IMG/VR virus record: IMGVR_UViG_3300026980_000004
DNA: 64,000 nt
DNA from: a virus
Lineage: Duplodnaviria > Heunggongvirae > Uroviricota > Caudoviricetes
Reading direction: 5' to 3' (one strand)
Each line of letters opens with the position of its first letter. Within the stretch, counting starts at the first letter, position 1. Positions 8,978-53,396 of this stretch are shown here, piece by piece. The notes beneath the pieces were generated by a model. That model saw nothing but the letters and a program-made list of their open reading frames with translations, made no database searches and had not been told where the DNA came from. The position numbers and the translations under genes were made by a program.

Positions 8978-9029
8978 AAGTTGTTTTTAACACTATTTTT
9001 TATAAATTTGTAAAAAAATAATAAATTAC

Positions 9030-36738: not shown

Positions 36739-37311
36739 TTATTTTATAATTTCCAATTCTTGTAGAATCTTTTTTACATTACTTTTCAATGTATCTAAAT
36801 CAGAGTCATTTACTATTGTATAATCAAAACCAGTATAATCATCTAATTCAATTTCTGATTGATGGTAATCAATATTTTTAATAGATGGTCTATTAATTCT
36901 GATTAATTGAGAATTATAAGAATTCAATGCCTCTGCTTCATTTTTAAATCTTAAGTCAGTAATGATCCAATAATAATTTTCTTTATATTTGGAGAGTGTT
37001 GAATTTATCCAAACATTTTGATGTACATTATTTCTCATAGCATCAGTACCAATTTTCTGCAATAATAATCTGGGTGTCATTTTTTGCATAATACAATCAT
37101 CATCTAAAAAATCCCATTGACTAGGTAATGGTGTATTTTTAAATTCTTCATTTTCCAATTCATCTCTTGTACATGAGATTAAATTACAAACAAAATCCTT
37201 TAAAATATCTGCGAATTTAACAATTTTAAATTTATTATTTGTTAACTCTTGAATAATATTTGCAACCGTATCTTTACCGTGTTGTTTTTTTGCGGATAAT
37301 GCAATAATCAT
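36739..37311 (-). CDS. deoxynucleoside monophosphate kinase (T4 gene 1-like)
   Basis: N-terminal P-loop MIIALSAKKQHGKDTVANII is similar to T4 gp1 MKLIFLSGVKRSGKDTTADFI. Confidence 0.6.
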   Translation of the reverse strand: MIIALSAKKQHGKDTVANIIQELTNNKFKIVKFADILKDFVCNLISCTRDELENEEFKNTPLPSQWDFLDDDCIMQKMTPRLLLQKIGTDAMRNNVHQNVWINSTLSKYKENYYWIITDLRFKNEAEALNSYNSQLIRINRPSIKNIDYHQSEIELDDYTGFDYTIVNDSDLDTLKSNVKKILQELEIIK

Positions 37312-37496
37312 TTATTTTTTATTTTATTATAACAAGTATTAAAATTAATTTCTTCACCAGCATCAAACCCAAATGATGTATTTTTCCACCAAATATATAT
37401 ATTATCGTTTAAGGAATAAAATATTCCAGCCGAATTATTTTTCATTTTATTGGTTTTTAGACAATTTTCTGCTTGATTATTTAAATATATATCCAT
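37308..37496 (-). CDS. hypothetical small protein
   Basis: 62-aa ORF. Confidence 0.3.
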   Translation of the reverse strand: MDIYLNNQAENCLKTNKMKNNSAGIFYSLNDNIYIWWKNTSFGFDAGEEINFNTCYNKIKNK

Positions 37497-37499
37497 AAA

Positions 37500-37745
37500 T
37501 TATATATTTAATAGTGCTTTATAATAATCAGATGCCAATAAATTATTAGCCCCACTTTTAGATTTAATAATTTTTTTTAATCTATTTTCAGCACCCTCAA
37601 GCAGTTCCCATAATGTACCATTATCATATTCCTTTGAAATTATAGAATCAAACTTATTTCTATATTCTGGATATTCATCTACTAATTTATTTTTAAATAT
37701 GTTAAATCTTCTCTTAATTAATTTTTCTGCCGTAGTTTTATCCAT
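37500..37745 (-). CDS. hypothetical small protein
   Basis: 81-aa ORF. Confidence 0.3.
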   Translation of the reverse strand: MDKTTAEKLIKRRFNIFKNKLVDEYPEYRNKFDSIISKEYDNGTLWELLEGAENRLKKIIKSKSGANNLLASDYYKALLNI

Positions 37746-37920
37746 TTTAATTATATTTAGTTAATAAATTTTTAAATTCTTCTGATTTAATTAATGTTTT
37801 ATAAGATGTGTACATTTTTTTTATCACACTACCACCAACTGGATTTTTTCTAAAACCATCTCTATATATTGCATCGTTTTCAGATATATCAAATAATTTG
37901 AATTTAATATTTGCAAATTC

Positions 37921-38292
37921 TTAAAATTTATCAATAATATTTTTAATATATGATAATTTAACATGAGTATTGTCCCATATAATATTATAACCGTTTTCCA
38001 AAAACATTGTTGCGTTTGAAAACTCAATGTCAGTCACTAATTTTTCAAGATCGTATTCTAATAATGGTTTATTTTTTATCATATAACGAATATCATCCCT
38101 ATTTATTCTAAGATAATCAGGGTTATCAATTATAAATTCTTTTGCAAATGTTGATTTACCAGAGGCTGGAATCCCTATAAGAATTAATATTTCTTTAGAT
38201 TTCTCTTCCATATTCTTTTTTATAAAGATCAAAATTTCTAAATTGTGAATGAATGTATTTCCATGTTTCATTAAAATCTTCAACAGTTCCAT
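37921..38292 (-). CDS. P-loop kinase (polynucleotide-kinase-like N-terminal domain), short
   Basis: ILILIGIPASGKSTFAKEF Walker A followed by RINRDDIR, resembling the Pnk kinase domain. At 123 aa it may be truncated. Confidence 0.45.
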   Translation of the reverse strand: MELLKILMKHGNTFIHNLEILIFIKKNMEEKSKEILILIGIPASGKSTFAKEFIIDNPDYLRINRDDIRYMIKNKPLLEYDLEKLVTDIEFSNATMFLENGYNIIWDNTHVKLSYIKNIIDKF

Positions 38293-38396
38293 GTGTTGAT
38301 GATTTGTATGTTGATCTAATTCCTTTTGGTTTTAGATCATATTTCCTAATAATTTTTTTATTTGGTATTAAAAGATTTTTTATTTTGTACAGCATT

Positions 38397-39590
38397 TTAG
38401 TATTTTTTAAAAGTGGGTTCATAATATTTTTTTATTGTAAATAATGATTCTTCTTTATCCGTTAGGAGTTTTGATCCTATTCTTCTTATTGGTTGTGATA
38501 TAATCCCTAAAATTCTTAAATCATCAATAATCTTATCAATCTCATTATTGGTTAGGTTATCATTATTAACAATTGATTTTATTTCGTTTTGGGTAATCGA
38601 TGAATTTTTATTTTTAATTGTATATAATTTTTCAATTATATCTATATATTGTTTATATTCTTTAAATTCCTTACTATTTCTTATATAATTTATTTTATTT
38701 TTTTCAATTTGCTCATTATGTTTAGTAATCTCATCATTTTTTAATTTTATCAAACCAATTTTGTTACCAATAAAAATTATTCCGAACTCTGTAATAATCG
38801 TAAATATAATAAACATAATGATAATAATATTATTCTTATCATTAAAATTCGTTAAATTCTCATTTCTTTTTTCCCTAATGGTATTAATTACAGATCGTAA
38901 CTCGTTTTCTAACTCATTTACTTTAGATTTTTTATATGTATTAAATTTTAAATCTAATTCAATTAAATTATTATTAACCTGATCAATTTTATTATTAATA
39001 TCTTTATAATATTCTCTTAAGCTAATGCTTCTTATTTGTGAATCATCGTAGTTATCTCTATCGGATTTATATTGATTTAATTGACTCATATATATGTTAT
39101 ATGTACCACTAAAATCATTAACATCAACTATTTTTAAATTTTTAATTTGATTGATTTTATCATTATAATAGTTTGTTGTATCCAATATTGATTGATTAAT
39201 GGTATTTTCAATGATAATTGTAGTATCTTCTTTTTTATCTAGAAATTTATATATACCATATGTTGAAATTGATATTGATAATACTACTGTTATAGATGCA
39301 ATTATTATATTTTCGATTGATTTATCAAATGAAAATAAACTAATTAATTTATTTACTTTGATAATTTCATTTGTAATTATTAACAATAATAAAAATATAC
39401 CAAATATAACAATCAAATATGGTTCAATCCCTAAATTTGATAATTCTTTAATAATAGATAATGAAAATAAAATTGAAAAAAAGGATAATATTTTAATAAA
39501 AAAATTATTCAATTTATCAATTATTATATTTTTCTTTGGTTCCCATTGTGATTCGGTAACCAATAATTTTTCAATGTCTTCAATCTTCAT
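38397..39590 (-). CDS. membrane protein with coiled-coil region, hypothetical
   Basis: 397-aa ORF with several TM segments. Confidence 0.4.
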   Translation of the reverse strand: MKIEDIEKLLVTESQWEPKKNIIIDKLNNFFIKILSFFSILFSLSIIKELSNLGIEPYLIVIFGIFLLLLIITNEIIKVNKLISLFSFDKSIENIIIASITVVLSISISTYGIYKFLDKKEDTTIIIENTINQSILDTTNYYNDKINQIKNLKIVDVNDFSGTYNIYMSQLNQYKSDRDNYDDSQIRSISLREYYKDINNKIDQVNNNLIELDLKFNTYKKSKVNELENELRSVINTIREKRNENLTNFNDKNNIIIIMFIIFTIITEFGIIFIGNKIGLIKLKNDEITKHNEQIEKNKINYIRNSKEFKEYKQYIDIIEKLYTIKNKNSSITQNEIKSIVNNDNLTNNEIDKIIDDLRILGIISQPIRRIGSKLLTDKEESLFTIKKYYEPTFKKY

Positions 39591-39874
39591 AAGATTATTT
39601 TTAGAAACTAACCAATGACAAATTTATAATAAAAATATATATGTGTCAACCTTTTATTATTATTTCTGAACCATTGCTCAATATAATTTTGCACGATTGA
39701 TTTTTTTCTAATCTAATAACATGTTTATATATGTAATTTGTATCAGCACTGAACGTTACTACGTTTGCTAGTTGTTGTTTTTCTTCTTCTAATTCGTAAC
39801 CTTTTGCTCTAGAATCACCCATATTAATAATATTAAATTTTAAAAAAAGGGTGGAAAAATCCACCCCACCATTT

Positions 39875-40252
39875 TTATTTCAACATTGCTTCAAGTTCTT
39901 CTACACTCTTACTTGCAAGCTCTTGATCCTTTTTCAACTTAATTAGATTAAGAATATGTTGATTTGTCTCCTTATTTTGTGCTTTGGTTCTTTCATCCTC
40001 CAATTCTTTTTTCTTTGTAAGATATACATCTTTAAGAATTTCAAATTGAAGTTCCTTTTCTTTGTCTACAACGAAATTATCATCCAAGAAAGATAATTCA
40101 TCATCATTCTGTGATTTCAACTCTTTCTTTAGGTTCTTAATTGAATTGCTTAGTTTGGTTAAACTAAGGTCCCATAATTGTTCAACCGATAGAACACCTT
40201 GTGTTGTTTTAAATCTTAACTGATTTTTTGTTGCTAATTTGTAAATATCCAT
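39875..40252 (-). CDS. coiled-coil protein, hypothetical
   Basis: 125-aa ORF. Confidence 0.35.
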   Translation of the reverse strand: MDIYKLATKNQLRFKTTQGVLSVEQLWDLSLTKLSNSIKNLKKELKSQNDDELSFLDDNFVVDKEKELQFEILKDVYLTKKKELEDERTKAQNKETNQHILNLIKLKKDQELASKSVEELEAMLK

Positions 40253-40256
40253 TATT

Positions 40257-42449
40257 TTAAAATTTAATTTTTAATGTTCTTTTAAATGATCCACTGACTC
40301 GTACAATTAATTCATCTTTAACAGTTGAATTAAAACCAATTCCTGATAGTTGCTTATTTGAGGGTTCTATCATTGATTGATTACCCAATACTTCCAATAC
40401 TTTTCTATGTTGGAGTAATTCACTATTCAAATATTCATTATGAAAACTTCTTAGAGGTGCATCGGTTTTACAGTTACTCAACATAAAGAAATAATGCTTA
40501 TTCCCAATATTGTTATCACCCCAATAATTTGGTGATTGACAAACAAGATTTACTTTATGAAATTTATTCGTATCTAAATTCCAGATAGTATTTGTTTTTT
40601 CTTGACTAACATCTAGCTTATTTTTAATCTCAAATTTACCATTTTTTAAAGTAACTTCAGCTACAACTACATTACCACTAAATGAATTTGGATATTCATA
40701 TGTGTATGAATTACCATCAAATTCGATTTCAGCTGTAAAACCCTTTGATCCTCTATTAGAAAACATGTTTACCCAGAAAGTATAAACACCGTCTTTCATT
40801 TTACTTTTATCAAGATATGAAATATTTTCAACGATATTTTTATTTTTGTAGGTATTTGGTGTTGTAATATCAACATCTAGTTGCCCACCATTACGAGTTC
40901 TACTATCACCACGATCTTTTCTATATGGTGTGTCATAACCAATTTTAGTTCCGTTTGGTTCTTTACACCAAGCATCCAAATCGGTATTATCACTAGGATC
41001 ATTTTCACCCCACATAATACTGAATCTTAATGCACAATCAACTAATCCACCCTTTTCTTTTACAGCATCTTTAATATATGATTTACCAGCTAAATTACCG
41101 TTATATGTCCAGCTAAATGGATTACCCCATTTAAATATATTTTTAGATTCTGGACTATTACCTGTAATTAAACTAACAAAATTAGAATTAAATCTATTTT
41201 CAAGATATACTTCAACAGAGGTTGATGTAGGAAGAATGTCATTCATGAATTTATCAATTGTAACTTCTTCAACGTTGTCCAATTCACTTCTTTTATGTCT
41301 TGAACTTTTTGTAGCTTTAACATTATCAAATAAGCTCGCAGACTTTACCTTTGTATTATCAACATTTGTATGAAGAATTTCATCAATATTAATATCATCA
41401 ATTGTTGCAAATCTTCTGTTAAATGAATCCTCATATCCATTTTCGATTACAAAAGCTTCAGCTTCTTTAATTTGTTTTTCGGTGATTGGTGCCTTTGCCT
41501 TCATATAATTAACTGGGTCTGCACGTTTATTCCAATCAAGACATGCTTTATTCAGTTCTTTACCTTCGGCTAATTCAACACAAATAGTACCGATTAATTC
41601 ATTTCTAAATTTAGCATAAGGTAACTCATATGATTTAACCCATGCGTAGTTATCTCTTTTTGTAGAGCCAATTTGATCATATTCCTTTTTAAACTTAATA
41701 AAATCAATTAGTTTGGGTAAATATGAATCACCATTTAACAGTGAACCTTGTGTGATTAAATCTTTAACTAATTGTAATGTATCTAATGGAATTTCACCCA
41801 AACCTCTTTTAAATACATCCTTAGCATCACGATATTCACCCCTGATTTTTTCAATTGAATCATTCCCAAATTTAACAAACTTTCTATCCAAGAAAACATG
41901 GTAGTGGTTAAATTCATAGACCCGATCAGTTGTAACAACACCAAATTTATTTACTTCATCTTGAGTATATTTTTTTAGTGTTTTTACAATACCCAACTGA
42001 TACTTCAATAAATTTTTATTGGTTTTTTCGTATGGTAATGAATTTAATTCATCATACGTTTCAAAAAATACATTTGAAACTTTTGATTTTTTTAATTTAT
42101 TTGATAATTTATTTGCTGGATTATAATAAATTGAGTCTTGATTTATATCTAAATCAAACATCGTTAAAATATCCAGATTATTATCAATGGCAACAACATT
42201 TCCATATCTTCTAATGAAGTTTTTATCATTATTACAGTTATGATAAGAACTATTTGGATCTCTAAATACGGGATCATCACCCTTCTTAAACGATTTTAAA
42301 TACAACTCCCACAAATCATCACCAGATACTGAAGATTTAAATAATTTAAAATTTGATTGCAAATAATCAAATCTTTTTGAGATTAGATTATTGAATTCAG
42401 TAAACGATAAATCTAAATCGTTTATTTTTTTTGAAAGTGTTGTTTCCAT
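40257..42449 (-). CDS. large hypothetical protein (730 aa)
   Basis: Long uninterrupted ORF; no motif I can assign confidently. Confidence 0.45.
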   Translation of the reverse strand: METTLSKKINDLDLSFTEFNNLISKRFDYLQSNFKLFKSSVSGDDLWELYLKSFKKGDDPVFRDPNSSYHNCNNDKNFIRRYGNVVAIDNNLDILTMFDLDINQDSIYYNPANKLSNKLKKSKVSNVFFETYDELNSLPYEKTNKNLLKYQLGIVKTLKKYTQDEVNKFGVVTTDRVYEFNHYHVFLDRKFVKFGNDSIEKIRGEYRDAKDVFKRGLGEIPLDTLQLVKDLITQGSLLNGDSYLPKLIDFIKFKKEYDQIGSTKRDNYAWVKSYELPYAKFRNELIGTICVELAEGKELNKACLDWNKRADPVNYMKAKAPITEKQIKEAEAFVIENGYEDSFNRRFATIDDINIDEILHTNVDNTKVKSASLFDNVKATKSSRHKRSELDNVEEVTIDKFMNDILPTSTSVEVYLENRFNSNFVSLITGNSPESKNIFKWGNPFSWTYNGNLAGKSYIKDAVKEKGGLVDCALRFSIMWGENDPSDNTDLDAWCKEPNGTKIGYDTPYRKDRGDSRTRNGGQLDVDITTPNTYKNKNIVENISYLDKSKMKDGVYTFWVNMFSNRGSKGFTAEIEFDGNSYTYEYPNSFSGNVVVAEVTLKNGKFEIKNKLDVSQEKTNTIWNLDTNKFHKVNLVCQSPNYWGDNNIGNKHYFFMLSNCKTDAPLRSFHNEYLNSELLQHRKVLEVLGNQSMIEPSNKQLSGIGFNSTVKDELIVRVSGSFKRTLKIKF

Positions 42450-42799
42450 AATAATAGATGTTTGTTTATTAAAATTTCTCTTTTTTCCGAAAGATGTCCC
42501 AAAGTTAATATTATTTTTCTAATCTCCAAAATTTTCTGTTCGATTTCTTTTGATTCATTAAAATTAAGATAATTTCTTTCGGTTAAATATGAAATATAAT
42601 ACAGAATTTTTTTTAAACCAATATCGGCATCATAATGCTTATTGGAAATATATAGTAAATAGATATTATGTATTGAATTATGAATCACATCGATATCTGG
42701 TGATGCACTATCTAGTTTATTATTGTTATAATTAAATTTAGAAATTATAATCGTAATTAATAATAGTGTATATATTATATTAATGAATAAAATATCCAT
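42422..42799 (-). CDS. hypothetical protein with N-terminal TM segment
   Basis: 125-aa ORF. Confidence 0.35.
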   Translation of the reverse strand: MDILFINIIYTLLLITIIISKFNYNNNKLDSASPDIDVIHNSIHNIYLLYISNKHYDADIGLKKILYYISYLTERNYLNFNESKEIEQKILEIRKIILTLGHLSEKREILINKHLLLWKQHFQKK

Positions 42800-42802
42800 T
42801 TC

Positions 42803-43171
42803 TTAGTCTTTGACGATTTCAATTATTTCTTTGAATGGATTATATTCAACTTGAAAACACCTCATCCAAAGCCCCTCATCCAATAGTAATTCATCATGTT
42901 CATCATGAGAGATTACAGCATCACCACCAATCACCTCAAATATTAAATTTTCCATTGTTGCAATTTCTTCATTCGTCATTGTCATGATTTTATCATCATC
43001 ACTATGCAAAATTAAATCAGTACCCTCACAAGGAATTACATCATGGCTGTGTCCTGTAACTTCACCAAGTCCAACAACAATTTTATTAATTTTTTTTGAA
43101 TGTAAATTTTTATTAATATTATTAAGTTTTAATAATATCATATCACCATGTCTTAGTTTTTTTGTATACAT
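42803..43171 (-). CDS. hypothetical protein
   Basis: 122-aa ORF. Confidence 0.35.
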   Translation of the reverse strand: MYTKKLRHGDMILLKLNNINKNLHSKKINKIVVGLGEVTGHSHDVIPCEGTDLILHSDDDKIMTMTNEEIATMENLIFEVIGGDAVISHDEHDELLLDEGLWMRCFQVEYNPFKEIIEIVKD

Positions 43172-43176
43172 AATTT

Positions 43177-43839
43177 TTATGCTTCAGAATATAAATTTAA
43201 ATAATCTTCTTTTGTAAATGGCTCACCATTTGGAAATCTCATTGTCCATGCAATTGCCGATATTGCATCGCTATTACATCTACTATCAGAACTATCAACA
43301 TATAAATAATAAATTCTATCTGTTGAAGTATCTTTACATTTAACATAACAAATGTCTTCTGGGGTATTTAACTTATTTTTATCAATCAAATATAATTCAT
43401 AAATATCTTCAAACTCATGAATCTCTTCAATTAATTCTTCTTTCTTAAAAACCTCAGTAACTTTATGTGATTTTTTACCTGATATTTTATATCTTGGTTG
43501 TTTTTTGATAATAACTTTACGATCGATTAATTTAGGCTCTATTACTTTTTGAATTTCTTCGGGTCCTATTAATGATAGTATTTTATATTTCAGTTCTTGA
43601 TTTGTTAATTTAAATGCATCAACTGCATTCCAAGGTCTTACTCGATTATCATCCCAAATCTCTTTAGCCTTCTTAATAATTTCATCGTATTCGGAATTTT
43701 CAATATGCAAATATCGATTTTTTATATGATCCCATGTATTATCTTTATTAATTTTTAAAATTCTAATGAGATCAACCAAAGAATCTAATTTGATTTCCTC
43801 ATAAAAATATTTAAAATTTTTATAATCAAGGTTTAACAT
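43177..43839 (-). CDS. hypothetical protein
   Basis: 220-aa ORF. Confidence 0.4.
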   Translation of the reverse strand: MLNLDYKNFKYFYEEIKLDSLVDLIRILKINKDNTWDHIKNRYLHIENSEYDEIIKKAKEIWDDNRVRPWNAVDAFKLTNQELKYKILSLIGPEEIQKVIEPKLIDRKVIIKKQPRYKISGKKSHKVTEVFKKEELIEEIHEFEDIYELYLIDKNKLNTPEDICYVKCKDTSTDRIYYLYVDSSDSRCNSDAISAIAWTMRFPNGEPFTKEDYLNLYSEA

Positions 43840-43840
43840 T

Positions 43841-44083
43841 TTAGTAAATAACTATATTATTATTATAAATCCTATTAAATAATTCTTCTTTGATATCAAA
43901 TTCTAGATTTGCCACAAATTCGGAAAAATCCATATTTTCTGTTTCTCTAACAACAGATAACAAATGTCTGAAATTTTTAGAATAATTCAAAATATTTGAA
44001 TAATTTTTTTCATTTTTCTTTAGATCTTTAATGAAATAAACTAATTCTGAATTACTAAACTCCTTCACATATTTTTTTAACAT
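43841..44083 (-). CDS. hypothetical protein
   Basis: 80-aa ORF. Confidence 0.3.
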   Translation of the reverse strand: MLKKYVKEFSNSELVYFIKDLKKNEKNYSNILNYSKNFRHLLSVVRETENMDFSEFVANLEFDIKEELFNRIYNNNIVIY

Positions 44084-44087
44084 ATTA

Positions 44088-46568
44088 TTATTTGATTTTA
44101 ATTGTTAATTCTTCTGAATTTTTTAAATATTTAATTTCAATTAGATTACCTTCTTTTATATTTCCCTTAATAATCTCATCTGATATAGGATCTTCGATAT
44201 ATTTTTGAATTGCTCTGTTTAATGGTCTTGCACCATATATTTGATTATAACCTCTTTCTATTAGAAAATTATATGCGGTGTCAAATATTTTAATTTTATA
44301 ACCCAAGTTATTTAATTTATTAATCAAATTCTCGATATTTAATTTAATGACTCTTTTAATATCTTCTTTTGATAAATTATTAAAAGTAACAATATTATCG
44401 ATTCGATTTATAAATTCGGGTGGTAATGATTTTTGAAGTTCTTTTTCAATTATTTGTTTATTAATTTCATTTTGATTATCAACATCTGTCTTTGTCGAAA
44501 AACCAATCCCATTGCCAAATGTTTGAATTTTTCTAACACCAATATTTGATGTCATAATAATAATGGTATTTTTAAAATTAATTGTTCTACCCAAGCCATC
44601 TGTTAATATACCATCATCAAATACTTGTAATAACAAATTAAATACATCTGGATGTGCCTTTTCAATTTCATCTAATAAAATAACTGAATATGGTTTTCTT
44701 CTAACCTTTTCTGTTAGTTGACCACCCTGCTCATGTCCAACATAACCAGGAGGCGAACCGATTAGTCTACTAACATTAAATGATTCCATATATTCAGACA
44801 TATCAATTCTAATAAAAGAATCTTTAGTTCCGAATAGATATTCTGCAAGCTCTTTTGTTAAATGTGTCTTACCCACACCTGATGAACCCAAAAATAAAAA
44901 AACACCATTTGGTTTTGATTCATTTTGTAAACCAACCCTATTTCTCTTAATAGCTTTTACAATATCATCAACTGCATGTTCTTGTCCGATAACTTTACTA
45001 TTTAAAACATCGTTCATTTTTAATAGTCTATTATTATCATTTTCGGATAGTTTTTTTACGGGTACACCAGTTATCGATGTAATAACATCACCAACATCGT
45101 CTAATGATACATCAAATCTATCATTTTTTGTATCTCTTTCCCATTTTTCTTTTATTTTATTTAAATCCTTTAGTAGTTTTTTTTCTTTATCTCTTAGACC
45201 AACAGCCTTTTCATATTCTTGAGTTTTAACTACCTTTATTTTCTCACTTTTAATATTTTCAATTTCAGTTTCAATTTTAACAATATCTTCTGGTATTGTT
45301 TGGTTGTTAATATAAACCCTTGAACCAACCTCATCAAATATATCGACAGCTTTATCTGGAAAAAATCTATCAGTTATAAATCTATTAGATAATTTAACAC
45401 AAGCCTCAATAACCTCATCTGAATATCTTACTTTATGAAACTCTTCATAAACAGGTTTGATTTGTTTTAAAATATTTATTGTTTCATCAACTGTAGTCTC
45501 TTCAACCATAACAGTTTGAAATCTTCTCGTTAATGCACTATCTTTTTCAATATTTTCCCTATATTCATTCAATGTTGTTGCACCAATACATTGCATTTCA
45601 CCATTAGCCAATGCGGGTTTAATCATATTTGATGCATCCAATGAACCAGATGCTCCACCAGCACCTATAATCGTATGTAGTTCATCGATAAATAAAATAA
45701 TATCTGGATTATCAACCAATTCAGACATAATCCCTTTCAATCTTTCTTCAAATTGACCTCTATATTTTGTACCTGCAACAAGTAAACCCAAATCCAAACT
45801 AACAATTCTTTTATCATGTAATTTTCTTGATACCTTCTTTTCTTTTATTTTCTGTGCTAGTAAATTAATAATATTTGATTTACCAACACCTGGTTCTCCA
45901 ATTAATAATGGATTTCTTTTAGTTCTTCTAGATAATATTTGTGATAATCTTTTTACTTCTTTATCTCTACCAATGACAGGATCTAATTTACCCTCCTCAG
46001 CCATTTTAGATAAATCCCTACTAAAATTATCTAAAATCGGTGTTTTTGATTTTGTATTAGTATTTTTTTTATTATTTGAATTCGTATTACCGAATATTGT
46101 ATCACCATCATCATCGTTTGTATACATATTACTCTCTATATTTATATTTGAATATTCGTCTTTAATAAAATCGTGGATTTTTATGTAAAATAAATCATTT
46201 TTGTTTAAAACGGTTTTAATATCAGAATCACTTCTGAGTAAAGATAATAAAAGATGTTCAACTTCAACAGTTCTTAGACCAAAACTTTTGGCCTCTTTAT
46301 AACTTTCAACTAATACCTGATTATACTTATCCGATATTTTAAATGTGGGGTCGGTATTATTAAATTTACCACTAAATAATAATTTTAAAATCTCTGTTTT
46401 AATCTTTTCATTATCAATTTTAAAATATTCCAATATTTCTGACATGAAATTATTTCTAAATAATGATAATGATAAATGTTCTAAACAAACAATTGTATGT
46501 GAGTTTGTTGTTGCGATTCTTTTTGAATCGTTAATAATGTCTTTAATTTCTGATGAAAGATCGATCAT
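44088..46568 (-). CDS. Clp/Hsp100-family double-AAA+ ATPase (ClpC/ClpB-like)
   Basis: Clp_N-like repeats. Walker A GEPGVGKS (AAA-1) and GSSGVGKT (AAA-2). Sensor/arginine-finger contexts present. Confidence 0.8.
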   Translation of the reverse strand: MIDLSSEIKDIINDSKRIATTNSHTIVCLEHLSLSLFRNNFMSEILEYFKIDNEKIKTEILKLLFSGKFNNTDPTFKISDKYNQVLVESYKEAKSFGLRTVEVEHLLLSLLRSDSDIKTVLNKNDLFYIKIHDFIKDEYSNINIESNMYTNDDDGDTIFGNTNSNNKKNTNTKSKTPILDNFSRDLSKMAEEGKLDPVIGRDKEVKRLSQILSRRTKRNPLLIGEPGVGKSNIINLLAQKIKEKKVSRKLHDKRIVSLDLGLLVAGTKYRGQFEERLKGIMSELVDNPDIILFIDELHTIIGAGGASGSLDASNMIKPALANGEMQCIGATTLNEYRENIEKDSALTRRFQTVMVEETTVDETINILKQIKPVYEEFHKVRYSDEVIEACVKLSNRFITDRFFPDKAVDIFDEVGSRVYINNQTIPEDIVKIETEIENIKSEKIKVVKTQEYEKAVGLRDKEKKLLKDLNKIKEKWERDTKNDRFDVSLDDVGDVITSITGVPVKKLSENDNNRLLKMNDVLNSKVIGQEHAVDDIVKAIKRNRVGLQNESKPNGVFLFLGSSGVGKTHLTKELAEYLFGTKDSFIRIDMSEYMESFNVSRLIGSPPGYVGHEQGGQLTEKVRRKPYSVILLDEIEKAHPDVFNLLLQVFDDGILTDGLGRTINFKNTIIIMTSNIGVRKIQTFGNGIGFSTKTDVDNQNEINKQIIEKELQKSLPPEFINRIDNIVTFNNLSKEDIKRVIKLNIENLINKLNNLGYKIKIFDTAYNFLIERGYNQIYGARPLNRAIQKYIEDPISDEIIKGNIKEGNLIEIKYLKNSEELTIKIK

Positions 46569-46739
46569 TAGCTTAAAATAATTCCGTATTTTGTTTTAAT
46601 CATTTCTGAATTAAGAATTTCAGTTTTCCCTGTATTAATATCGTATGCATCTTCGTGAACAATAATATATTCATCCGATCTGATAAGAATAATGTAAATT
46701 AATTCAGGTTCATTCATTAATTGAAATGTCCTAATTGGT

Positions 46740-46961
46740 TTATTTTTTATTTCTTTCCAAAGCATATATTCGTTTAATTATTTCTTCGTTCGTTTGTTTA
46801 TCAAGACTACTCACATCATCACCAACAATTGCATCTTCTCTCCCTAAATTATAGGCACGTAATAAAAGAGGATTTGGATTCCACATTTTTTTTCTACCAT
46901 ATAATTCATCTTTAAATCCGCAAATATACGTTTCTAATAATATATTATCTTGATCATCCAT
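46740..46961 (-). CDS. hypothetical small protein
   Basis: 73-aa ORF. Confidence 0.3.
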   Translation of the reverse strand: MDDQDNILLETYICGFKDELYGRKKMWNPNPLLLRAYNLGREDAIVGDDVSSLDKQTNEEIIKRIYALERNKK

Positions 46962-47081
46962 ATTTTAATAATAATAATTTAGCTTTATTAATATATTCTT
47001 CCATTAGCATTTAATTTTGACTAAAAAATCAATATGTGCATATCCTTTATCCGTATTAACAGTTTGAAATAATATAGAAAA

Positions 47082-48260
47082 TTATCCCTTTATAGTATAA
47101 ACTATTGGGTTTACTGCTAAACCCTCTATCCCATCTGAAAATACATTTGGGACTACTTTCCGTAAAATATTATATGAACCATTTATATCTGAATTAATTA
47201 ATCTACCATCTGAAGCTTTAAATAAACCTCTTTTAATTCTTTTTCCCAAATATTTAACATGTTTGCAAATATCTTCCATATCAAGAAATGAACATTTTGA
47301 TGTGTATGATTCTTCATTAATTATAACAGATATACCCTCAATTTCACATTTATATGTTAACATATAAATTAAATTTGAATATGGGATTGATACAAATTTC
47401 TGATTATTTACTTTACCAATATTAATGTCTTGTTTCCATTCTTTATTATAACCAATAATGAGTTTTGTTATATTATTGGAAACTAAATGATTCACCAATT
47501 GTCGGCTTGATTTATGTAAATAATCATGAATTTTATTTCTTCTTTTTAATCCAAGTTTTTTTATTTTATTTGTTATTTTCTTTGTTTGATATTTTGCTTT
47601 TAATTTATTATAATATTGATTAATTGATTTAACTGGTTTACCATTAATAATAAATGGATCAAATACATTACTTGTTACACTCATTAGATTATTAACACCC
47701 AAATCAATAGATGCTATTTTATTATTTTCAATTATATTTTTATTTGATTTGATTGTATAAATAATTTCAATTATAAAATAACCTAATTTTGGGACAATTC
47801 TTACTTGATTAATGTTTTCTTTTTTTGTAGTAACTATTATATCAGTACCAGATAGTTTTATTTTTCCATTTTTTAATTTCCTTCGAGAAATCGCACCTTT
47901 TTCATATATAACAACCATTTTACCATCTTTGGGTAAATATTGTGGTATTTTTATCTTTTTATTATATTTTCCAATATTTTTCTTTTTTAATAATGAGAAA
48001 AATGATTTAAAAGATTTATCAACCAACATTAATGTTTGATTACTTACTTTTCTGGGTAATTCAATATAATCAATTTGGTTATTATCTATAAAATTTCTAT
48101 TTACACCATAATAATTTATATATTGGTTATTTTTAAAAAAATGTTGTCTAACAAAATATAATGCAGAATTATAAAGATTTTTACTCAATGAAGATAATTT
48201 ATTGCATTCATTAAAATATTTATGATTATTATTAATTATATGTTGTTCTACTAATTGCAT
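47082..48260 (-). CDS. tnpB: TnpB (IS605/IS607 OrfB, RuvC-like nuclease)
   Basis: RuvC-I ASIDLGVNNLMSV. C-terminal YTSKCSF...NSDINGSYNI (RuvC-III). Zn ribbon partly degenerate. Confidence 0.7.
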   Translation of the reverse strand: MQLVEQHIINNNHKYFNECNKLSSLSKNLYNSALYFVRQHFFKNNQYINYYGVNRNFIDNNQIDYIELPRKVSNQTLMLVDKSFKSFFSLLKKKNIGKYNKKIKIPQYLPKDGKMVVIYEKGAISRRKLKNGKIKLSGTDIIVTTKKENINQVRIVPKLGYFIIEIIYTIKSNKNIIENNKIASIDLGVNNLMSVTSNVFDPFIINGKPVKSINQYYNKLKAKYQTKKITNKIKKLGLKRRNKIHDYLHKSSRQLVNHLVSNNITKLIIGYNKEWKQDINIGKVNNQKFVSIPYSNLIYMLTYKCEIEGISVIINEESYTSKCSFLDMEDICKHVKYLGKRIKRGLFKASDGRLINSDINGSYNILRKVVPNVFSDGIEGLAVNPIVYTIKG

Positions 48261-48827
48261 TTATGATTCAATAAATTTAATAATATCTTCTTTATTTCTT
48301 TTTTTTCTTAAGCCATACATTCTTGCAGAGAATGAATAAATAATCGAAACCAAATCTTCCATTAGTGAATTTTTATCGCTATCTTGGTTGTTTACTACGA
48401 TAATTTTTCTATCTTGAAGTTCGAGAAGTGTTTGAATATAATTAAAACCAAATCGTGTTAATCTATCTTTGTGTTCTATTAGTAGTATATCCCATGATTT
48501 ATCTTGGAGGAGTTTTATTAGTTTTGGTCTTTGGTCATTCATTCCAGACCCAATTTCCTTAACCGATTTATTAATCTTAAAATTATTACGATTTGAATAT
48601 TCTATTAGTCTATCTAATTGCCTATCTAGATTTTCTTTCATTTCTGAGGATGATACTCTACAATATATCGCAACGGTTTTATCTGTTTCAATTTGTTTGG
48701 GGATAAAAATATTACCTAATTTATCTTTAAATGCACCATCTATTAAACCTCTTTTATAATGATTCCAAGCAGTACGATAAGTTATAGACATATTTTTTGC
48801 GTAATCACTCAATTTTATATATTTCAT
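48261..48827 (-). CDS. tnpA: IS607-type TnpA serine recombinase (N-terminal MerR-like HTH plus resolvase catalytic domain)
   Basis: AIYCRVSSSEMKENLDRQ has the catalytic Ser of the resolvase family. Small size (188 aa) is typical of IS607 TnpA. Confidence 0.7.
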   Translation of the reverse strand: MKYIKLSDYAKNMSITYRTAWNHYKRGLIDGAFKDKLGNIFIPKQIETDKTVAIYCRVSSSEMKENLDRQLDRLIEYSNRNNFKINKSVKEIGSGMNDQRPKLIKLLQDKSWDILLIEHKDRLTRFGFNYIQTLLELQDRKIIVVNNQDSDKNSLMEDLVSIIYSFSARMYGLRKKRNKEDIIKFIES

Positions 48828-48880
48828 ATATATAAATACTCAATAATTTATTTATTTTCTTAATATTCTAGATTTTTCCA

Positions 48881-49738
48881 TTAAATTTTATTAACTTTGC
48901 TATCACTTAATGAACTTTTATATTTATGATTCCAATCATTAATTTTTTTATCATATTCTTGTTTTAGAATCGCATTCTTATTATTAACATCTTCAACATC
49001 GATTTTATGTTGTGAAATTCTTTTTTGATTTTCTTCAGATACCAAGTTTTTAACTTTAGCTTTAATATAATTTACCTTTTTTTCATAATTCCTATGAACG
49101 TTAGCTAGTTTATTATGGAGTTCATCGTAAAAATCGACTTGGTGGTGTTGTGATATTGTAATAATTGATTTTTCATCTTTCTTTTGTTCAAACCATTCAA
49201 TCGATGGAATATTATGAACTTGAGACCTAAAATTTTCAAGAATTGAATTTTTATGTATGAATTGACCAATATGTGCAGCATGTGCTTCATTATCTAAATA
49301 CTCATTATATTCCTCATCTGTCAATTGATCAAAACCCCACTCTTCATCAACTAATATAAGACTAGGTTCTAATTCGTATTTTGGATTTTCTGGCTTTTCA
49401 ACATTAAAAACAAATTCCTTATCTTTTTCTTCCTCAATTAACTGATCTTTTCTTTTCATAGCATCCATTAAATATGCTTGAAAAGAATGTAATCTAGCCT
49501 TTTCTTCTAATAATTTATCAACATCATATGGTATTTTTTTAGTCTTATATATAATAACGTCACCAAAATATTTATCATATAAACCATATGATTTAAATTT
49601 TTTATTAATGTTTTCAGCTTTTTGATTACACAAATTTGATAATGATTGTGCATCTGACATCGATAGTCCTTCTTTACCTAAATTTCTCATATTTTTTTTA
49701 TTATTTATAATTATTGTGGAAACCCATCTAATTTCCAA
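48881..49738 (-). CDS. coiled-coil protein, hypothetical
   Basis: 285-aa ORF. Confidence 0.4.
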   Translation of the reverse strand: MEIRWVSTIIINNKKNMRNLGKEGLSMSDAQSLSNLCNQKAENINKKFKSYGLYDKYFGDVIIYKTKKIPYDVDKLLEEKARLHSFQAYLMDAMKRKDQLIEEEKDKEFVFNVEKPENPKYELEPSLILVDEEWGFDQLTDEEYNEYLDNEAHAAHIGQFIHKNSILENFRSQVHNIPSIEWFEQKKDEKSIITISQHHQVDFYDELHNKLANVHRNYEKKVNYIKAKVKNLVSEENQKRISQHKIDVEDVNNKNAILKQEYDKKINDWNHKYKSSLSDSKVNKI

Positions 49739-49968
49739 TTTTCATATTCTTCTAAGACTAAATCAATAATTGGTTTAGCATGTTCAAGTATTTTATTATT
49801 TAATTCAACAACCTCTGGAATATCATTACCATTTTCATCCAATGGAATCAAAATAGTACCACCCATTTTATCAATAAAATATGCTTGAATTGCAACTTTT
49901 AATCTGATATCTAATGGTATTTGTTTTAATGATTCTCTAATGTCGAAATTTTCTTCTTTTTTTATCAT
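49711..49968 (-). CDS. hypothetical small protein upstream of the recombinase
   Basis: 85-aa ORF. Confidence 0.3.
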   Translation of the reverse strand: MIKKEENFDIRESLKQIPLDIRLKVAIQAYFIDKMGGTILIPLDENGNDIPEVVELNNKILEHAKPIIDLVLEEYENWKLDGFPQ

Positions 49969-49994
49969 AACGAAACAAAGGTATAATTTATTTT

Positions 49995-50798
49995 TTAAAC
50001 TACCAAATTCACCTTTGACAAAATTTGATTCGAAACATGTGTATAAATTTCTGTTGTTTTATCATTTGAATGTCCTAAAATTTTTTGTATAATTCTTAGG
50101 TCAGTCCCATTTTCTAATAATGCGGTTGCTGATGAATGTCTCAAAGTGTGTATCGAACTTTCATTGTCAATATATTTTTTGTAAATTTTTTGACAACTCC
50201 CTATTGAATATTGTTCATTTTTTTGACCATTGAAAAGATAATTAGTTGGTTTATATTGTTTATAATATAATCTAAGTAATTCTAAAACTGTTTGTGATAG
50301 TGGAACTATCCTATCTTTCCTACCTTTGGCATTTTTAATGTGGATTAACATTTTTTTTGAATCAATATCTTCAATTTTTAGATTTACGACTTCAGAAACT
50401 CTTAAACCAACTGAAAAAGTTACACTTAATATTGATTTGTGTTTAATATTTTCAATTTGAGATAATTTGAATTTTATTAATTCACAATCAATTACTTTAG
50501 GTAATTTCTTTTCTGATCTAGGTCTTTTAAATGACACTTTATCATATTTTTTACCTAAAACTTCTTTATATAAAAATCTAATTGAATTAATTACTTGATT
50601 TTGTTGTGATGTTGATGTGAATTTATAATTATTCAAATAGTGTTTAAAATCATCAGAACTACAATGAATGATTTGCTTATCACCCATGCTATCAATAAAA
50701 TGTTTTATATGTGATATATAATTTTCTTTGGTTCTTGGTGAATAGTTTAGATATATAAACTTTTGTTCACAAATCTTTATAATTTTTTGGTTTTTCAT
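49995..50798 (-). CDS. intI: tyrosine recombinase, putative integron-type integrase
   Basis: C-terminal catalytic region LRHSSATALLENGTDLRIIQKILGHSNDKTTEIYTHV (R..H..R..Y). Divergently oriented next to an attI-like site and a cassette array. Short (267 aa) for a classical IntI. Confidence 0.6.
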   Translation of the reverse strand: MKNQKIIKICEQKFIYLNYSPRTKENYISHIKHFIDSMGDKQIIHCSSDDFKHYLNNYKFTSTSQQNQVINSIRFLYKEVLGKKYDKVSFKRPRSEKKLPKVIDCELIKFKLSQIENIKHKSILSVTFSVGLRVSEVVNLKIEDIDSKKMLIHIKNAKGRKDRIVPLSQTVLELLRLYYKQYKPTNYLFNGQKNEQYSIGSCQKIYKKYIDNESSIHTLRHSSATALLENGTDLRIIQKILGHSNDKTTEIYTHVSNQILSKVNLVV

Positions 50799-50853
50799 GT
50801 TGTAAGATATTGAAAATTAATATATTATGAAAACTTATGTATATATAATAGTT
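50799..50853 (+). other. attI-like recombination site ending in the G|TT crossover triplet
   Basis: Ends in ATATATAATAGTT. The 10 nt GTTGTGGTGC are exactly reverse-complementary to GCACCACAAC at 51108-51117 (R'' of the first attC). Duplicated at 30932-30990. Confidence 0.55.
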
Positions 50854-50861
50854 GTGGTGCA

Positions 50862-51101
50862 TCATAATTCACGTACAGCTACAACAATTCCATTTTTAGG
50901 AGTGCCATCAGAAAAAAGCCCTTCGTGTTCTATTTCTGCAATCATTTTATCACCCCAATGATTATTCTTATAATTCCACAAAGCATCAAACCTATCTTGT
51001 GTAATTCCAACTTTCGGGTGAAACGTATCTTCACTATTTAATGGCTCACAAGTCATTGACTTTTTTCTGCTTAATCCTACTAATTTAAAATCTGATTTCA
51101 T
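50862..51101 (-). CDS. cassette 1 gene (reverse-oriented), hypothetical
   Basis: 79-aa ORF inside the first cassette. Confidence 0.4.
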   Translation of the reverse strand: MKSDFKLVGLSRKKSMTCEPLNSEDTFHPKVGITQDRFDALWNYKNNHWGDKMIAEIEHEGLFSDGTPKNGIVVAVREL

Positions 51102-51107
51102 AATTAA

Positions 51108-51236
51108 CGCACCACAACACAGTATAAAATCAAGCGTGGTTATAGTGTCTTTTTGACCGCTTCGGCTGTTTAAGTAGTTTGTAGCTGGCGGAGAAGTGTT
51201 TGCCGTTCATTCCCCGCCAGCTTTTATACTCGTCCG
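51108..51236 (+). repeat. attC site 1
   Basis: GCACCACAAC...CAGTATAAAATC / GCTTTTATACTCGTCCG|TTAGGC; R' GTTAGGC is the canonical core. Confidence 0.65.
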
Positions 51237-51449
51237 TTAGGCAACATTTTTAACCACTTTACGTATTTTTGTCTTCGCAGTGGTATCATTGTACCTATAT
51301 AAAATATCTTCTATTTCTAATATTTCTTTTTGTGGTAAATTTAAACCAGTTTCAACATACCTACCACTGCTTATACAAGCATCTACAAATTCTTTTAATT
51401 TATCTCTTGTTATCATAATAAAACGTTGCCTAACAAAGTGTATAAGCAA
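51237..51449 (-). CDS. cassette 2 gene (reverse-oriented), hypothetical
   Basis: 70-aa ORF. Confidence 0.4.
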   Translation of the reverse strand: MLIHFVRQRFIMITRDKLKEFVDACISSGRYVETGLNLPQKEILEIEDILYRYNDTTAKTKIRKVVKNVA

Positions 51450-51544
51450 TAGCCGTTAGGCGTTTTAACTATTCCAGTTGTTAATATTTAATTTTGTACT
51501 TCTAATCAAATTCCGTGTTCGGCTACTGCTCATACACTCGTCCG
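51425..51544 (+). repeat. attC site 2
   Basis: GTTGCCTAAC matches the rc of the cassette start TTAGGCAAC. Halves AACAAAGTGTATAAGCAATAGCCG / CGGCTACTGCTCATACACTCGTCCG|TT. Confidence 0.65.
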
Positions 51545-51565
51545 TTGTATGCAATAAAAATTATT

Positions 51566-51734
51566 TAGTACAATTGTGTAACGCATTACTGTAAGCGTTT
51601 TTTGGCGTGTTGCCATAACCAAGTACAATTCTATTTTTATCCCAAGTATCATAAACAACATAACCATTTTTATATCCTAAATTGTGTAGGCAACACTTAG
51701 GGTGTATCTTTTTTAAATTATCTCGTGCTTTCAT
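51566..51734 (-). CDS. cassette 3 gene (reverse-oriented, 56 aa; below the ORF-track cutoff)
   Basis: Translates as MKARDNLKKIHPKCCLHNLGYKNGYVVYDTWDKNRIVLGYGNTPKNAYSNALHNCTK. Confidence 0.3.
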
Positions 51735-51753
51735 AATTTTTACAGTTCGCTAC

Positions 51754-51844
51754 GCCATACAACAAAGTGTATAGCAAATAGCCTATTAATATTCAGTTTT
51801 TAATTCAACGGTCTGTGCTTCGGCTACTTGCCATACACAAGGCG
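51754..51844 (+). repeat. attC site 3 (91 nt)
   Basis: GCCATACAAC...GGCTACTTGCCATACACAAGGCG|TTAGCAG. Confidence 0.6.
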
Positions 51845-51856
51845 TTAGCAGTAATA

Positions 51857-52138
51857 TCATTTTTGTTCGTGAGTAACCCAACCATTTTGTTTTAATTCAG
51901 TTGCGTATTCGTGAATGATTTTATACTGCTCATATTGTTCATCTGTGCAATGATATGAATTGAATTTTTGCAAAAACATTTCATAAACTATCATTTCAAC
52001 AATCTTTGGTATCCCACTATATGCTTCCATAAGTGCTTTATAATTTTTTTCCTGACCAAATGTTTTTGCAAAAAACAAAATGGCATTTTCTACTTGTTCT
52101 TTACTTGCTTTCATATTTTTATATTTATCGTTAAACAA
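51857..52138 (-). CDS. cassette 4 gene (reverse-oriented), hypothetical
   Basis: 93-aa ORF. Confidence 0.4.
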   Translation of the reverse strand: MFNDKYKNMKASKEQVENAILFFAKTFGQEKNYKALMEAYSGIPKIVEMIVYEMFLQKFNSYHCTDEQYEQYKIIHEYATELKQNGWVTHEQK

Positions 52139-52147
52139 AAATGATAC

Positions 52148-52239
52148 ATACTGCTAACAGCGTATATGAGAAGTGGCACAGAAACATTTGTGCTAAATTT
52201 CAACATTCTACAAGTGCCACTTCTCATATACGCAAAACG
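52148..52239 (+). repeat. attC site 4 (92 nt)
   Basis: TACTGCTAAC (rc of cassette start TTAGCAGTA). GCGTATATGAGAAGTGGCAC / GTGCCACTTCTCATATACGCAAAACG|TT. Confidence 0.65.
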
Positions 52240-52250
52240 TTAGTGGCAAT

Positions 52251-52529
52251 TTAGTCATCAGACATACCACTTCTACATTTTATATCTTCCAAATCCCACA
52301 AAAAAAGTAGTGTGTTATTAAAGGTCGCATCATACCAAGGATATTTTGGATGGTCTTTGAATTGTTTTGCGTTCTTCAAAGCTAACTTTTTTTGTTCGGT
52401 ATATTTTTCAATCAAAGCATCAATAAAACTACCACTAACATCAAATAAATCCAATACTTGCTTTAGTGCTTCATCAGCAGTCATTTCTCCATTTTTAACC
52501 TTGTGCTTATAATAATCTGTTGCTTTCAT
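52251..52529 (-). CDS. cassette 5 gene A (reverse-oriented), hypothetical 92-aa helical protein
   Basis: ORF paired with a neighbouring 92-aa ORF in the same cassette (two-gene cassette; possibly a TA-like pair). Confidence 0.4.
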   Translation of the reverse strand: MKATDYYKHKVKNGEMTADEALKQVLDLFDVSGSFIDALIEKYTEQKKLALKNAKQFKDHPKYPWYDATFNNTLLFLWDLEDIKCRSGMSDD

Positions 52530-52569
52530 AACCGTACTGTATTTATTTGCATTCCGTTGTAGGTAATAG

Positions 52570-52848
52570 CTATTCAGGGTTCAGTTCTCTAAATAACTTA
52601 TATATGTTTTCGGGCTTTGTGAATAAGTCATTAACCCCAGTCAGCACTCTAACAACTGTGTATAATGCTCGTAGGTAGTCGCTATTATCATTGAAGTAAA
52701 TTGCGGAAACTGCTGCATTTAGTGCTTCCTTACTTGCATCGCTACTACCTACAACACCAAATAAAACCAATAGCCTGTCTTTTGCTTCTTGCTTGCTTAT
52801 TTCGTGTTTACAAAGTTCATCTATAATTGAGTCTATTTTCTTTTCCAT
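52570..52848 (-). CDS. cassette 5 gene B (reverse-oriented); start trimmed to the internal Met MEKKIDSIIDEL
   Basis: The upstream part of ORF-track entry 52570-52935 is low-complexity and overlaps a + strand gene. Confidence 0.35.
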   Translation of the reverse strand: MEKKIDSIIDELCKHEISKQEAKDRLLVLFGVVGSSDASKEALNAAVSAIYFNDNSDYLRALYTVVRVLTGVNDLFTKPENIYKLFRELNPE

Positions 52849-52875
52849 ACGGCTACTGTTTTTATTTGTGGAACG
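52849..52875 (+). repeat. degenerate/truncated attC 5 retaining only the R' end (AACG|TTGTGGGTAATATT)
   Basis: GTTGTGGGTA is reverse-complementary to TACCCACAAC at 53402-53411. Confidence 0.4.
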
Positions 52876-52930
52876 TTGTGGGTAATATTGAAAAACTGAA
52901 ATTGAAAAGAATTGATTGGATATTATTATT

Positions 52931-53396
52931 GGCATACATCGGAATCCACATAGTTATCGGATTGATTTATGTGCTAAATCTTTATGACCGAGAATGGATT
53001 CAGGATTTCTATTTTGTAATTCCATTTATTTATGTGTTTTTGATATTTGACATTTATCATAAACGATTTTGGAATAACAGAATTCTGATGATTTGGGGAA
53101 TTATCGGAGTAATTCAATTAGTCATTTATTATAACTATAGTGATTTACCTGAAATTCAAACCATGAATGGAAATGATTTGATTTGGTTAAAAGCATTGCC
53201 TTTGACAATCCTGACCTCTTATATCTTAAATTTGATTAATAAAAAAGTTTATGGAGATAACTTTATAGTAACCGCATTTCGACTAGACCCGAAACGGATT
53301 GACCAAAAAGACGGAAGAAAGTTGAGACCAGCTGACTATATTTTCTCTGTAAGCGGATTTATGATTATAATATTTGGAACAGTATTTACGAATTAA
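52931..53396 (+). CDS. cassette 6 gene: multi-TM membrane protein (start uncertain; TTG at 52931 or a later Met)
   Basis: ORF 52827-53396 in the track overlaps the opposite-strand gene; hydrophobic throughout. Confidence 0.35.

Follow-up and report, generated by a model that had tools for sequence, protein, structure and literature searches.

An apparently intact IS607-family insertion sequence, with its omegaRNA, in the 3′ end of a gene of a jumbo phage

Genes and guide RNA of the element

The DNA considered here is a stretch of 64,000 nucleotides – the window – from the IMG/VR virus record IMGVR_UViG_3300026980_000004 (Caudoviricetes). On its minus strand lie a serine transposase gene, tnpA (48261-48827), and a gene for an RNA-guided nuclease family protein, tnpB (47082-48260), the stop codon of the one (48261) abutting the ATG of the other (48260). 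Encoded by the locus are TnpA, a zinc-finger-less TnpB of the RuvC-II-rearranged type and an omegaRNA whose structured scaffold ends at the right end of the element. We are confident that together these form a single, apparently intact insertion sequence (IS) of the IS607 family, running on the minus strand from approximately 48905 to 47060 (about 1,845 bp) and positioned at the 3′ end of a conserved jumbo-phage gene. A preliminary description of the window had recognised an IS607-family tnpA-tnpB pair among phage genes, and this is borne out both by family models (NF033518 and NF040570, below) and by the occurrence of relatives in other contexts.

The two open reading frames (ORFs) are as previously described: a 188-amino-acid (aa) TnpA, with an N-terminal helix-turn-helix (HTH) and a C-terminal catalytic domain of the resolvase type, directly upstream of a 392-aa TnpB. 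Against NF033518, the equivalog model for IS607 family transposases, the tnpA product scores 165.6 bits (cut-off 110) over model positions 2-187 of 187; it also matches PF00239 (Resolvase, E 1.4e-19), and its closest solved relatives are the catalytic domains of the ISC1926 and IS1535 TnpA proteins (6dgc, E 1.7e-29; 6dgb, E 2.6e-25). The RVSS nucleophile motif (residues 56-59) and the DRLTRFG motif are both conserved, and in an alignment the protein is full length and collinear with 14 relatives. A promoter scan was uninformative in such AT-rich DNA, returning 26 sites where 26.6 were expected.

With NF040570 (guided_TnpB) the tnpB product reaches 173 bits, the cut-off being 100; it also has matches to PF01385 and PF07282. 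A single-sequence search of the PDB with TnpB returned nothing; profile and fold searches did find matches, and the AlphaFold2 model (pLDDT 83) adopts a fold about equally close to AsCas12f, ISFba1 TnpB, ISDra2 TnpB and mimivirus Fanzor2 (TM 0.59-0.69 at ~16% identity). A central issue is the active site. The RuvC motifs attributed earlier to this protein are canonical at D186 (RuvC-I) and D358 (RuvC-III), the RuvC-III motif, NSDIN, being of the ‘derived’ NADxN type; the attribution fails at RuvC-II, where profile alignment places an invariant glycine, Gly270, at the position of the canonical glutamate (E324 of AsCas12f). In addition, the four CxxC cysteines of the zinc finger are missing from all 26 aligned members. 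Two residues that are invariant in the strand following Gly270 – E316 and E317 – are candidates for compensation. On these features TnpB matches the RuvC-II-rearranged type without a zinc finger, a kind of TnpB that has already been described.

The TnpB family is large: at E 1e-10 or better it counts over 8,000 proteins, and IMG/VR phage contigs contain at least 548 of its loci. The nearest TnpB outside the lineage of the window is 63% identical. For comparison, relatives were gathered from 80 IMG/VR loci and from several metagenomic contigs; their TnpB is 48-63% identical to that of the window. Most family loci have lost tnpA, which is kept in about 19 of 82. The closest relative (63% identity; L003:3291-4564) has only the last 24 codons of tnpA remaining upstream, and just before this remnant stands a 94-aa fragment of an N6/N4 methyltransferase; the locus looks like a decayed IS607 element, one that may have inserted into a methyltransferase gene. 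TnpB genes of another type, with an HTH_OrfB_IS605 domain, occur in related jumbo-phage contigs (L004:783-1979 and L086:9882-11120), and several TnpB lineages thus coexist in such phages.

The omega-RNA that the preliminary description proposed to look for at the 3′ end of tnpB was found, and it is supported by covariation. The scaffold occupies 47059-47152 (minus strand), overlaps the last 23 codons of tnpB, comprises four helices and terminates in ACTGT. One stem, P(-1), pairs TCCCA (47152-47148) with TGGGA (47133-47129), and is followed by an invariant ATAGAGG and three hairpins. Across 21 relatives all 105 of 105 cells of P(-1) are paired, and four of the five positions covary, including full swaps between the strands (TTGGG/CCCAA). 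Because P(-1) falls within coding sequence, such changes force paired replacements of proline and glycine codons in the protein, as seen between subfamilies (VPN..DGIE versus VGE..YPIE). For the three hairpins, 86.5% of cells are paired in an alignment of a 10-sequence subfamily and 11 pairs have changed on both sides; none of 500 shuffles reached the observed values, and partners displaced by sliding were at most 53% paired.

A covariance model built from the subfamily (R1) has a sole hit in the 64 kb, at 47133-47059 (minus strand; 89.8 bits, E 2e-17), the next candidate scoring 14 bits, and the model also recovers relatives that were left out of its construction. The curated subfamily alignment was required: with 14 divergent relatives aligned simply by MAFFT, RNAalifold yielded one helix only. 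No Rfam family matched the guide RNA at its gathering threshold, and RAGATH-18 gave no match at E values up to 10 within 46800-49000. From this pattern of pairing we identify the structured RNA at the 3′ end of tnpB as the omegaRNA scaffold.

Ends and insertion site

When the 3′ regions of tnpB from the relatives are aligned, similarity runs beyond the stop codon and then ends abruptly after the motif A-C/T-T-N-T, which is conserved in 26 relatives and which in the window reads ACTGT (47059-47063, minus strand). The loss of similarity at this motif, together with the end of the RNA, places the right end at 47059/47060, to the base and 23 nt past the tnpB stop; the proposed crossover dinucleotide is the TG at 47061-47060. 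The sequence immediately beyond the right end, TAATACGGATAAAGGATATG (47039-47058, minus strand), is flanking phage DNA and, given the way in which TnpB proteins work, these ~20 nt would be the guide; the length is assumed by analogy with ISFba1 (PMC11061315). The predicted guide occurs once in the window.

The left end was placed by homology with the left ends of relatives, with an uncertainty of about 12 bases. It occupies 48828-48906 (minus strand), where the junction reads GTGA (48906-48903) and the proposed crossover TG (48905-48904) is followed by 76 nt that lead to the ATG of tnpA. The span given in the preliminary description, 47040-48880, was thus nearly right: its last 20 bases are the predicted guide rather than the element, and on the left the element probably extends about 25 bases further, to ~48905, where it overlaps the ORF upstream at its 3′ end. 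Defining the ends by comparison, as the description had recommended, succeeded to the base on the right, through the relatives, and to about 12 bases on the left.

A rule governing the ends emerges from the relatives that keep tnpA. In 12 of 12, G-T-N-T is found 86-104 nt upstream of tnpA, and its variable base is the same as that of the C-T-N-T at the right end. Four lineages have C as this base, five have G and three have A. Where it is C or G (nine cases), the probability of a chance match is about 0.15 per 70-nt AT-rich stretch; the left junctions of the 12 relatives include seven independent GTCT sites. T-N or N-T would be the crossover core of the serine recombinase, and a matching N at both ends is the pattern expected of such a core. 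At the ends of the window's element, AAGTGA on the left (48908-48903) and CTGT on the right, only TG is common to both, which suggests TG as the core. Inside the proposed left boundary the window shares 31 of 45 bases with one relative (L074), as against 19.5 of 45 outside it; with other relatives the contrast is weaker.

Two further signatures were sought at the ends. GTTAATA at 48889-48895 (minus strand) recurs as a direct repeat of 7 bp at the right junction (47054-47060) and would provide an alternative left boundary; as a target signature it was downgraded, since 2.1 kb contain four copies of the heptamer and AGTTAAT is internal to the left end of L074. Terminal inverted repeats are absent: a comparison of the leftmost 40 nt with the rightmost 40 nt, reverse-complemented, gives a score of 9, a value reached by 238 of 500 shuffles.

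The gene whose 3′ end the element occupies (P0121, 48881-49690, minus strand) encodes 269 aa, and its family has 166 protein members. The nine homologues that were aligned (299-310 aa) all continue for 25-35 residues past its end, the product being 30-35 aa shorter than any of its homologues, and the family profile alignment stops at position 267 of 305. If the boundary lies where proposed, the seven final codons of the gene and its stop (DSKVNKI, then stop) are probably contributed by the element. In the two closest relatives on long contigs, which are 56-57% identical, the gene is full length, is followed by ordinary genes and carries no IS. These IS-free relatives go some way towards the comparison with an uninterrupted region that had been called for; an empty copy of the phage itself was not found in the collections searched. 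The peptide encoded past the right end, VNTDKGYAHIDFLVKIKC followed by a stop, was considered as the displaced C-terminus and rejected as unproven: it improved the profile match by 1.6 bits, wrong frames did as well, and Smith-Waterman comparison of the same peptide against shuffles gave p ~0.15.

On the other side of the element stands a 73-aa phage gene (46740-46961, minus strand), which lies outside the element and is present on eight contigs, with one and the same set of neighbours, the IS among them. A 72% identical homologue of this protein was found at a sole locus (in L085), where the context is different and non-syntenic. No relatives of the 285-aa flank protein were found in IMG/VR or JGI contigs, and an exact-pattern search of metagenome and viral collections for both candidate empty joints returned none.

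Evidence of movement comes from a related element of 1,880 bp (L012, L013, L018, L020/L023), copies of which are 96.6-99.8% identical, lie in at least four different flanks and have the same ends, GTCT...ACTCT, in every flank. Its presence in at least four flanks shows that the family moves as a unit of tnpA, tnpB and omegaRNA. Neither of the marks of transposition – several sites of insertion, or an empty site – was found for the window's own element, which is fixed in the lineage sampled; the evidence of mobility is at the level of the family.

Proposed mechanism and rival explanations

How might such an element persist? From the family and from the published mechanism of IS607, TnpA would excise the element and insert it by recombining a short core sequence, here TG, that has to be identical at both ends, and insertion would leave no target duplication. 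A read-through transcript would be the source of the omegaRNA, whose 3′ part – ~20 nt of flanking phage DNA, TAATACGGATAAAGGATATG – would guide TnpB to the element-free allele, predicted to read ...TTAAGTGT/TAATACGG... and to be cut there by TnpB with G-T-N-T as the target-adjacent motif (TAM). Only the predicted empty joint would contain GTGT. At the occupied site the sequence is C-T-G-T, which would protect it from cutting; G versus C at the first position of the motif would play the role of the base difference that spares the occupied site of CboIS607. Repair of the break from an occupied copy would maintain the element across the population and might carry it into relatives that infect the same cell. 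Two sequences follow from this scheme: a predicted empty joint, ...AAAGTTCATTAAGTG/TTAATACGGATAAAGG..., and a predicted circle junction, ...TTATTTCAAAC-TG-ATAGCAAAGTTAAT....

Several observations weigh against an intact, mobile and active element inserted cleanly at this site. The left junction is GTGA and not GTGT, it lies 79 nt before tnpA as compared with 86-104 nt in the relatives, and the alternative left boundary (48895) is 11 bases from the favoured one. The missing C-terminus of the upstream protein is not recognised downstream of the right end, so that insertion into an intact gene may not have been a clean one; either a deletion accompanied insertion, or the C-terminus had already diverged in this lineage. 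Exact-protein look-ups with TnpB and with the 73-aa protein returned occupied sites only, on seven to eight contigs and in one arrangement, and the collections searched held neither an empty site nor a second copy of the window's own element. The GC content of the element (0.227) is near that of its flanks (0.264 and 0.279), and composition gives no hint of recent arrival. Nuclease activity is plausible on the conserved residues, the canonical RuvC-II glutamate being absent; along with the TAM, the guide length and the ends of the RNA, it is predicted by analogy.

Some of these points are just what would be seen if the element were a fixed relic – one that arrived long ago, whose left end has drifted and which TnpA no longer moves, and which persists because TnpB and the omegaRNA remove revertants or are of use to the phage, perhaps through the cutting of relatives that compete with it. 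We consider this possible, if distinctly less probable than an intact element. It accords with the single copy, carried by all eight contigs of the lineage; with GTGA where GTGT is expected and a left end shorter than in 12 relatives; with a composition like that of the phage; with a nearest TnpB elsewhere that is merely 63% identical; and with the frequency of tnpA loss in the family, in which about 19 of 82 loci keep the gene and L003 has a 24-aa remnant. Drift of this kind sits poorly with full-length tnpA and tnpB genes whose catalytic residues are conserved, with a TG core at both proposed ends, and with an omegaRNA score no lower than those of multi-copy relatives. A different reading of the Gly270 substitution and the missing zinc finger is that TnpB is catalytically dead and has become an RNA-guided DNA binder or repressor, in the manner of TldR. 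This we judge improbable: D186 and D358 are conserved and E316/E317 invariant – the compensated rearrangement that is taken to retain activity (PMC10691335) – and tnpB is still linked to tnpA, its guide still set by the flank.

That the genes are no insertion at all, and instead an ancestral resolvase and an ancestral nuclease of the phage, is very unlikely indeed. The failure to find an empty site would be explained, as would an orientation and composition shared with the neighbouring genes. It would leave unexplained why the gene pair, the RNA and the end motifs recur together in many unrelated phage contexts, why relatives of the flanking gene occur without the pair, and why that gene is truncated exactly here.

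Of greater reach is the idea of a phage-specialised OMEGA lineage, made up of the window's element together with more than 500 relatives carried by phages, that could act as a gene drive and a weapon in competition between phages. Its distinguishing features would be glycine for glutamate at RuvC-II, the lack of a zinc finger, an omegaRNA of ~95 nt set within the end of the coding sequence, and a G-T-N-T motif in which the variable base evolves together with the crossover site of the transposase. We advance this only as a speculation, more probably wrong than right. Were it true, relatives without the element would in a co-infection be cut by TnpB in the 3′ end of a conserved gene and so be converted or excluded; phage homing endonucleases act in much the same manner. 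More soberly, the element is of a kind that is common in large phages and is largely ordinary, and TnpB transposons in phages have been documented before; what the locus offers is an IS607/TnpB element, carried by a jumbo phage, with well-defined limits and a mapped guide RNA. The most useful by-products of the analysis are the end rule and the GTNT motif predicted from it. Matching of N between GTNT and CTNT predicts at once the crossover site of the transposase and the TAM of the nuclease, and the rule could lead to a compact nuclease of 392 aa with a short, AT-compatible motif. The RNA helix that dictates paired proline and glycine codon changes in the protein it overlaps is a further point of value.

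Phage context and comparison with known systems

The window is phage DNA, as is evident from a major head protein at 5295-6947 (phrog_138, E 2e-69); a 730-aa protein at 40257-42449 matches phrog_1735 (E 8e-211). An ENA contig of 265,825 bp (L001) is 100% identical to window positions 37082-52877, which makes the host a jumbo phage, of ~24% GC. Megablast of positions 40000-53000 against the INPHARED phages found nothing, and no close relative is present in the GenBank phage collection. ARAGORN found zero tRNA genes within the 64-kb window.

Past 52877/52878 the window is wholly unlike L001, though identical to it before. The breakpoint falls exactly on an AACGTT motif, and a Logan contig stops at the identical base; it could reflect exchange of a cassette between strains or a join made in assembly. 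The part beyond it has a GC content of 33% (as against 25%) and carries plus-strand ORFs without Pfam matches, and an MmeI-like restriction-modification enzyme is encoded there at 60435-63650.

A tyrosine recombinase of 267 aa (49995-50798; XerC/XerA-like) is encoded 1.1 kb from the IS607 element. The preliminary description spoke of an integron here; the recombinase, XerA- or integron-like in kind, scores 157.6 against TIGR02249 (cut-off 265) and 103 against NF011946 (cut-off 435), below both cut-offs, and the integron is therefore unconfirmed. In the 265-kb contig some 22 co-oriented ORFs of 57-99 aa precede the recombinase (L001:1-7460, with window 49995-52877), and the repeats between them, such as TTGTTAGGCAACGTT and CTACAACGGTT, resemble the attC cores of integrons. 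Recombinase and ORFs may together form a jumbo-phage cassette array resembling an integron. Beside the major head gene, at 7028-10058 (plus strand), stand a 649-aa ORF resembling HNH or homing endonucleases and a Mom-like DNA-modification protein fused to a C-terminus of homing-endonuclease type; these are further selfish or defence-related cargo.

The second TnpB-like nuclease that had been noted in the window, in the company of CRISPR arrays, is present at 20277-21668 (minus strand). It is a Cas12f homologue of 463 aa (PDB 9nzo/9nzr, E 4.4e-59), accompanied on the same strand by two arrays with 36-nt repeats, at 19743-20168 (seven repeats) and 17984-18150 (three repeats), and by an RlaP-like nucleotidyltransferase gene (18494-19726) between them. 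Ahead of each array is a 99-nt element (20191-20289 and 18182-18280), the two copies being 96% identical, which may be a trans-activating CRISPR RNA (tracrRNA) or a leader. With its Cas12f effector beside an array, 17984-21668 is, on its gene content, a compact phage-encoded type V-F system. Neither the spacers of its arrays nor the predicted TnpB guide matched elsewhere in the window or in the loci fetched. A homologue of Thg1-like tRNA-His guanylyltransferase (17136-17942, minus strand; PF04446, E 1.5e-24) adjoins the CRISPR locus.

The presence of both nucleases in one window had been put forward as a natural comparison of transposon-associated and domesticated forms. The alignment proposed for the two proteins was made and is weak: 28% identity over 122 residues, pairwise E 0.007. 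Both are indeed present, and the comparison is less direct than envisaged, Cas12f lying on a different branch; the two are distantly related members of separate branches that share one genome, not a transposon nuclease and its descendant.

Among characterised systems, ISDra2 – of the IS200/IS605 family (PDB 8h1j, 8exa) – resembles the window's element in having an omegaRNA that overlaps the 3′ end of tnpB and a guide drawn from the flank past the right end, and the folds of the two TnpB proteins match (TM 0.64-0.69, identity 16%). ISDra2 differs from it in its Y1 transposase, its single-stranded DNA transposition, its canonical RuvC-II glutamate and its zinc finger. The TnpA proteins of Helicobacter pylori IS607, IS1535 and ISC1926 share with that of the window the order of domains, HTH before catalytic domain, and a catalytic domain of clear homology (E 1e-25 to 1e-29); unlike the element described here, these elements use a GG core (PMC6188088).

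ISFba1 TnpB (PMC11061315; PDB 8iaz) is likewise IS607-associated, of ~390 aa, from low-GC sequence of gut type, and similar in fold (TM ~0.6). The proteins are ~16% identical. The reRNA of ISFba1, derived from RAGATH-18, measures 184 nt, all of it beyond the end of tnpB (PMC11061315); in the window no RAGATH-18 RNA was found at the locus, and the scaffold overlaps the end of the coding sequence. The triad of ISFba1 is canonical (D194/E290/D371), with AGGAG as the TAM, whereas the TnpB of the window has Gly270.

The active site finds its counterpart in the RuvC-II-rearranged (RIIr) TnpB proteins of Altae-Tran et al. 2023, in which glycine replaces the glutamate and an alternative glutamate is thought to compensate, and of which some branches are enriched in viruses and some are without a zinc finger (PMC10691335). 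Like these, the TnpB of the window has glycine for glutamate, a conserved glutamate further on, a RuvC-III motif of the NADxN type and an association with a serine recombinase (PMC10691335). TnpB in huge phages, the link to serine recombinases and the rearranged active site are already in the literature (PMC10691335).

There are also parallels with CboIS607, an IStron of Clostridium botulinum, in which the TnpA target, TGGG, is also the TAM of TnpB (PMC10690162). Its omegaRNA scaffold runs to the right end and finishes in the last two bases of the TAM, and the occupied site, TCGG, escapes cleavage (PMC10690162). The element described here departs from CboIS607 in that the core, GG within TGGG there, would lie in the T-N-T of G-T-N-T, with N varying between subfamilies; it also has no group I intron, a rearranged TnpB without a zinc finger and a jumbo-phage host, and it is known from sequence alone. 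Common to both are a serine-recombinase tnpA followed by tnpB on one strand and the lack of inverted repeats. If the ends proposed for the present element are right, both would also have no target duplication, a short core at both ends, and a target motif beside the left end that resembles the last bases of the scaffold and of the right end. A single upstream base differs at the occupied site of CboIS607, TGGG becoming TCGG, and would do so here, GTNT becoming CTNT.

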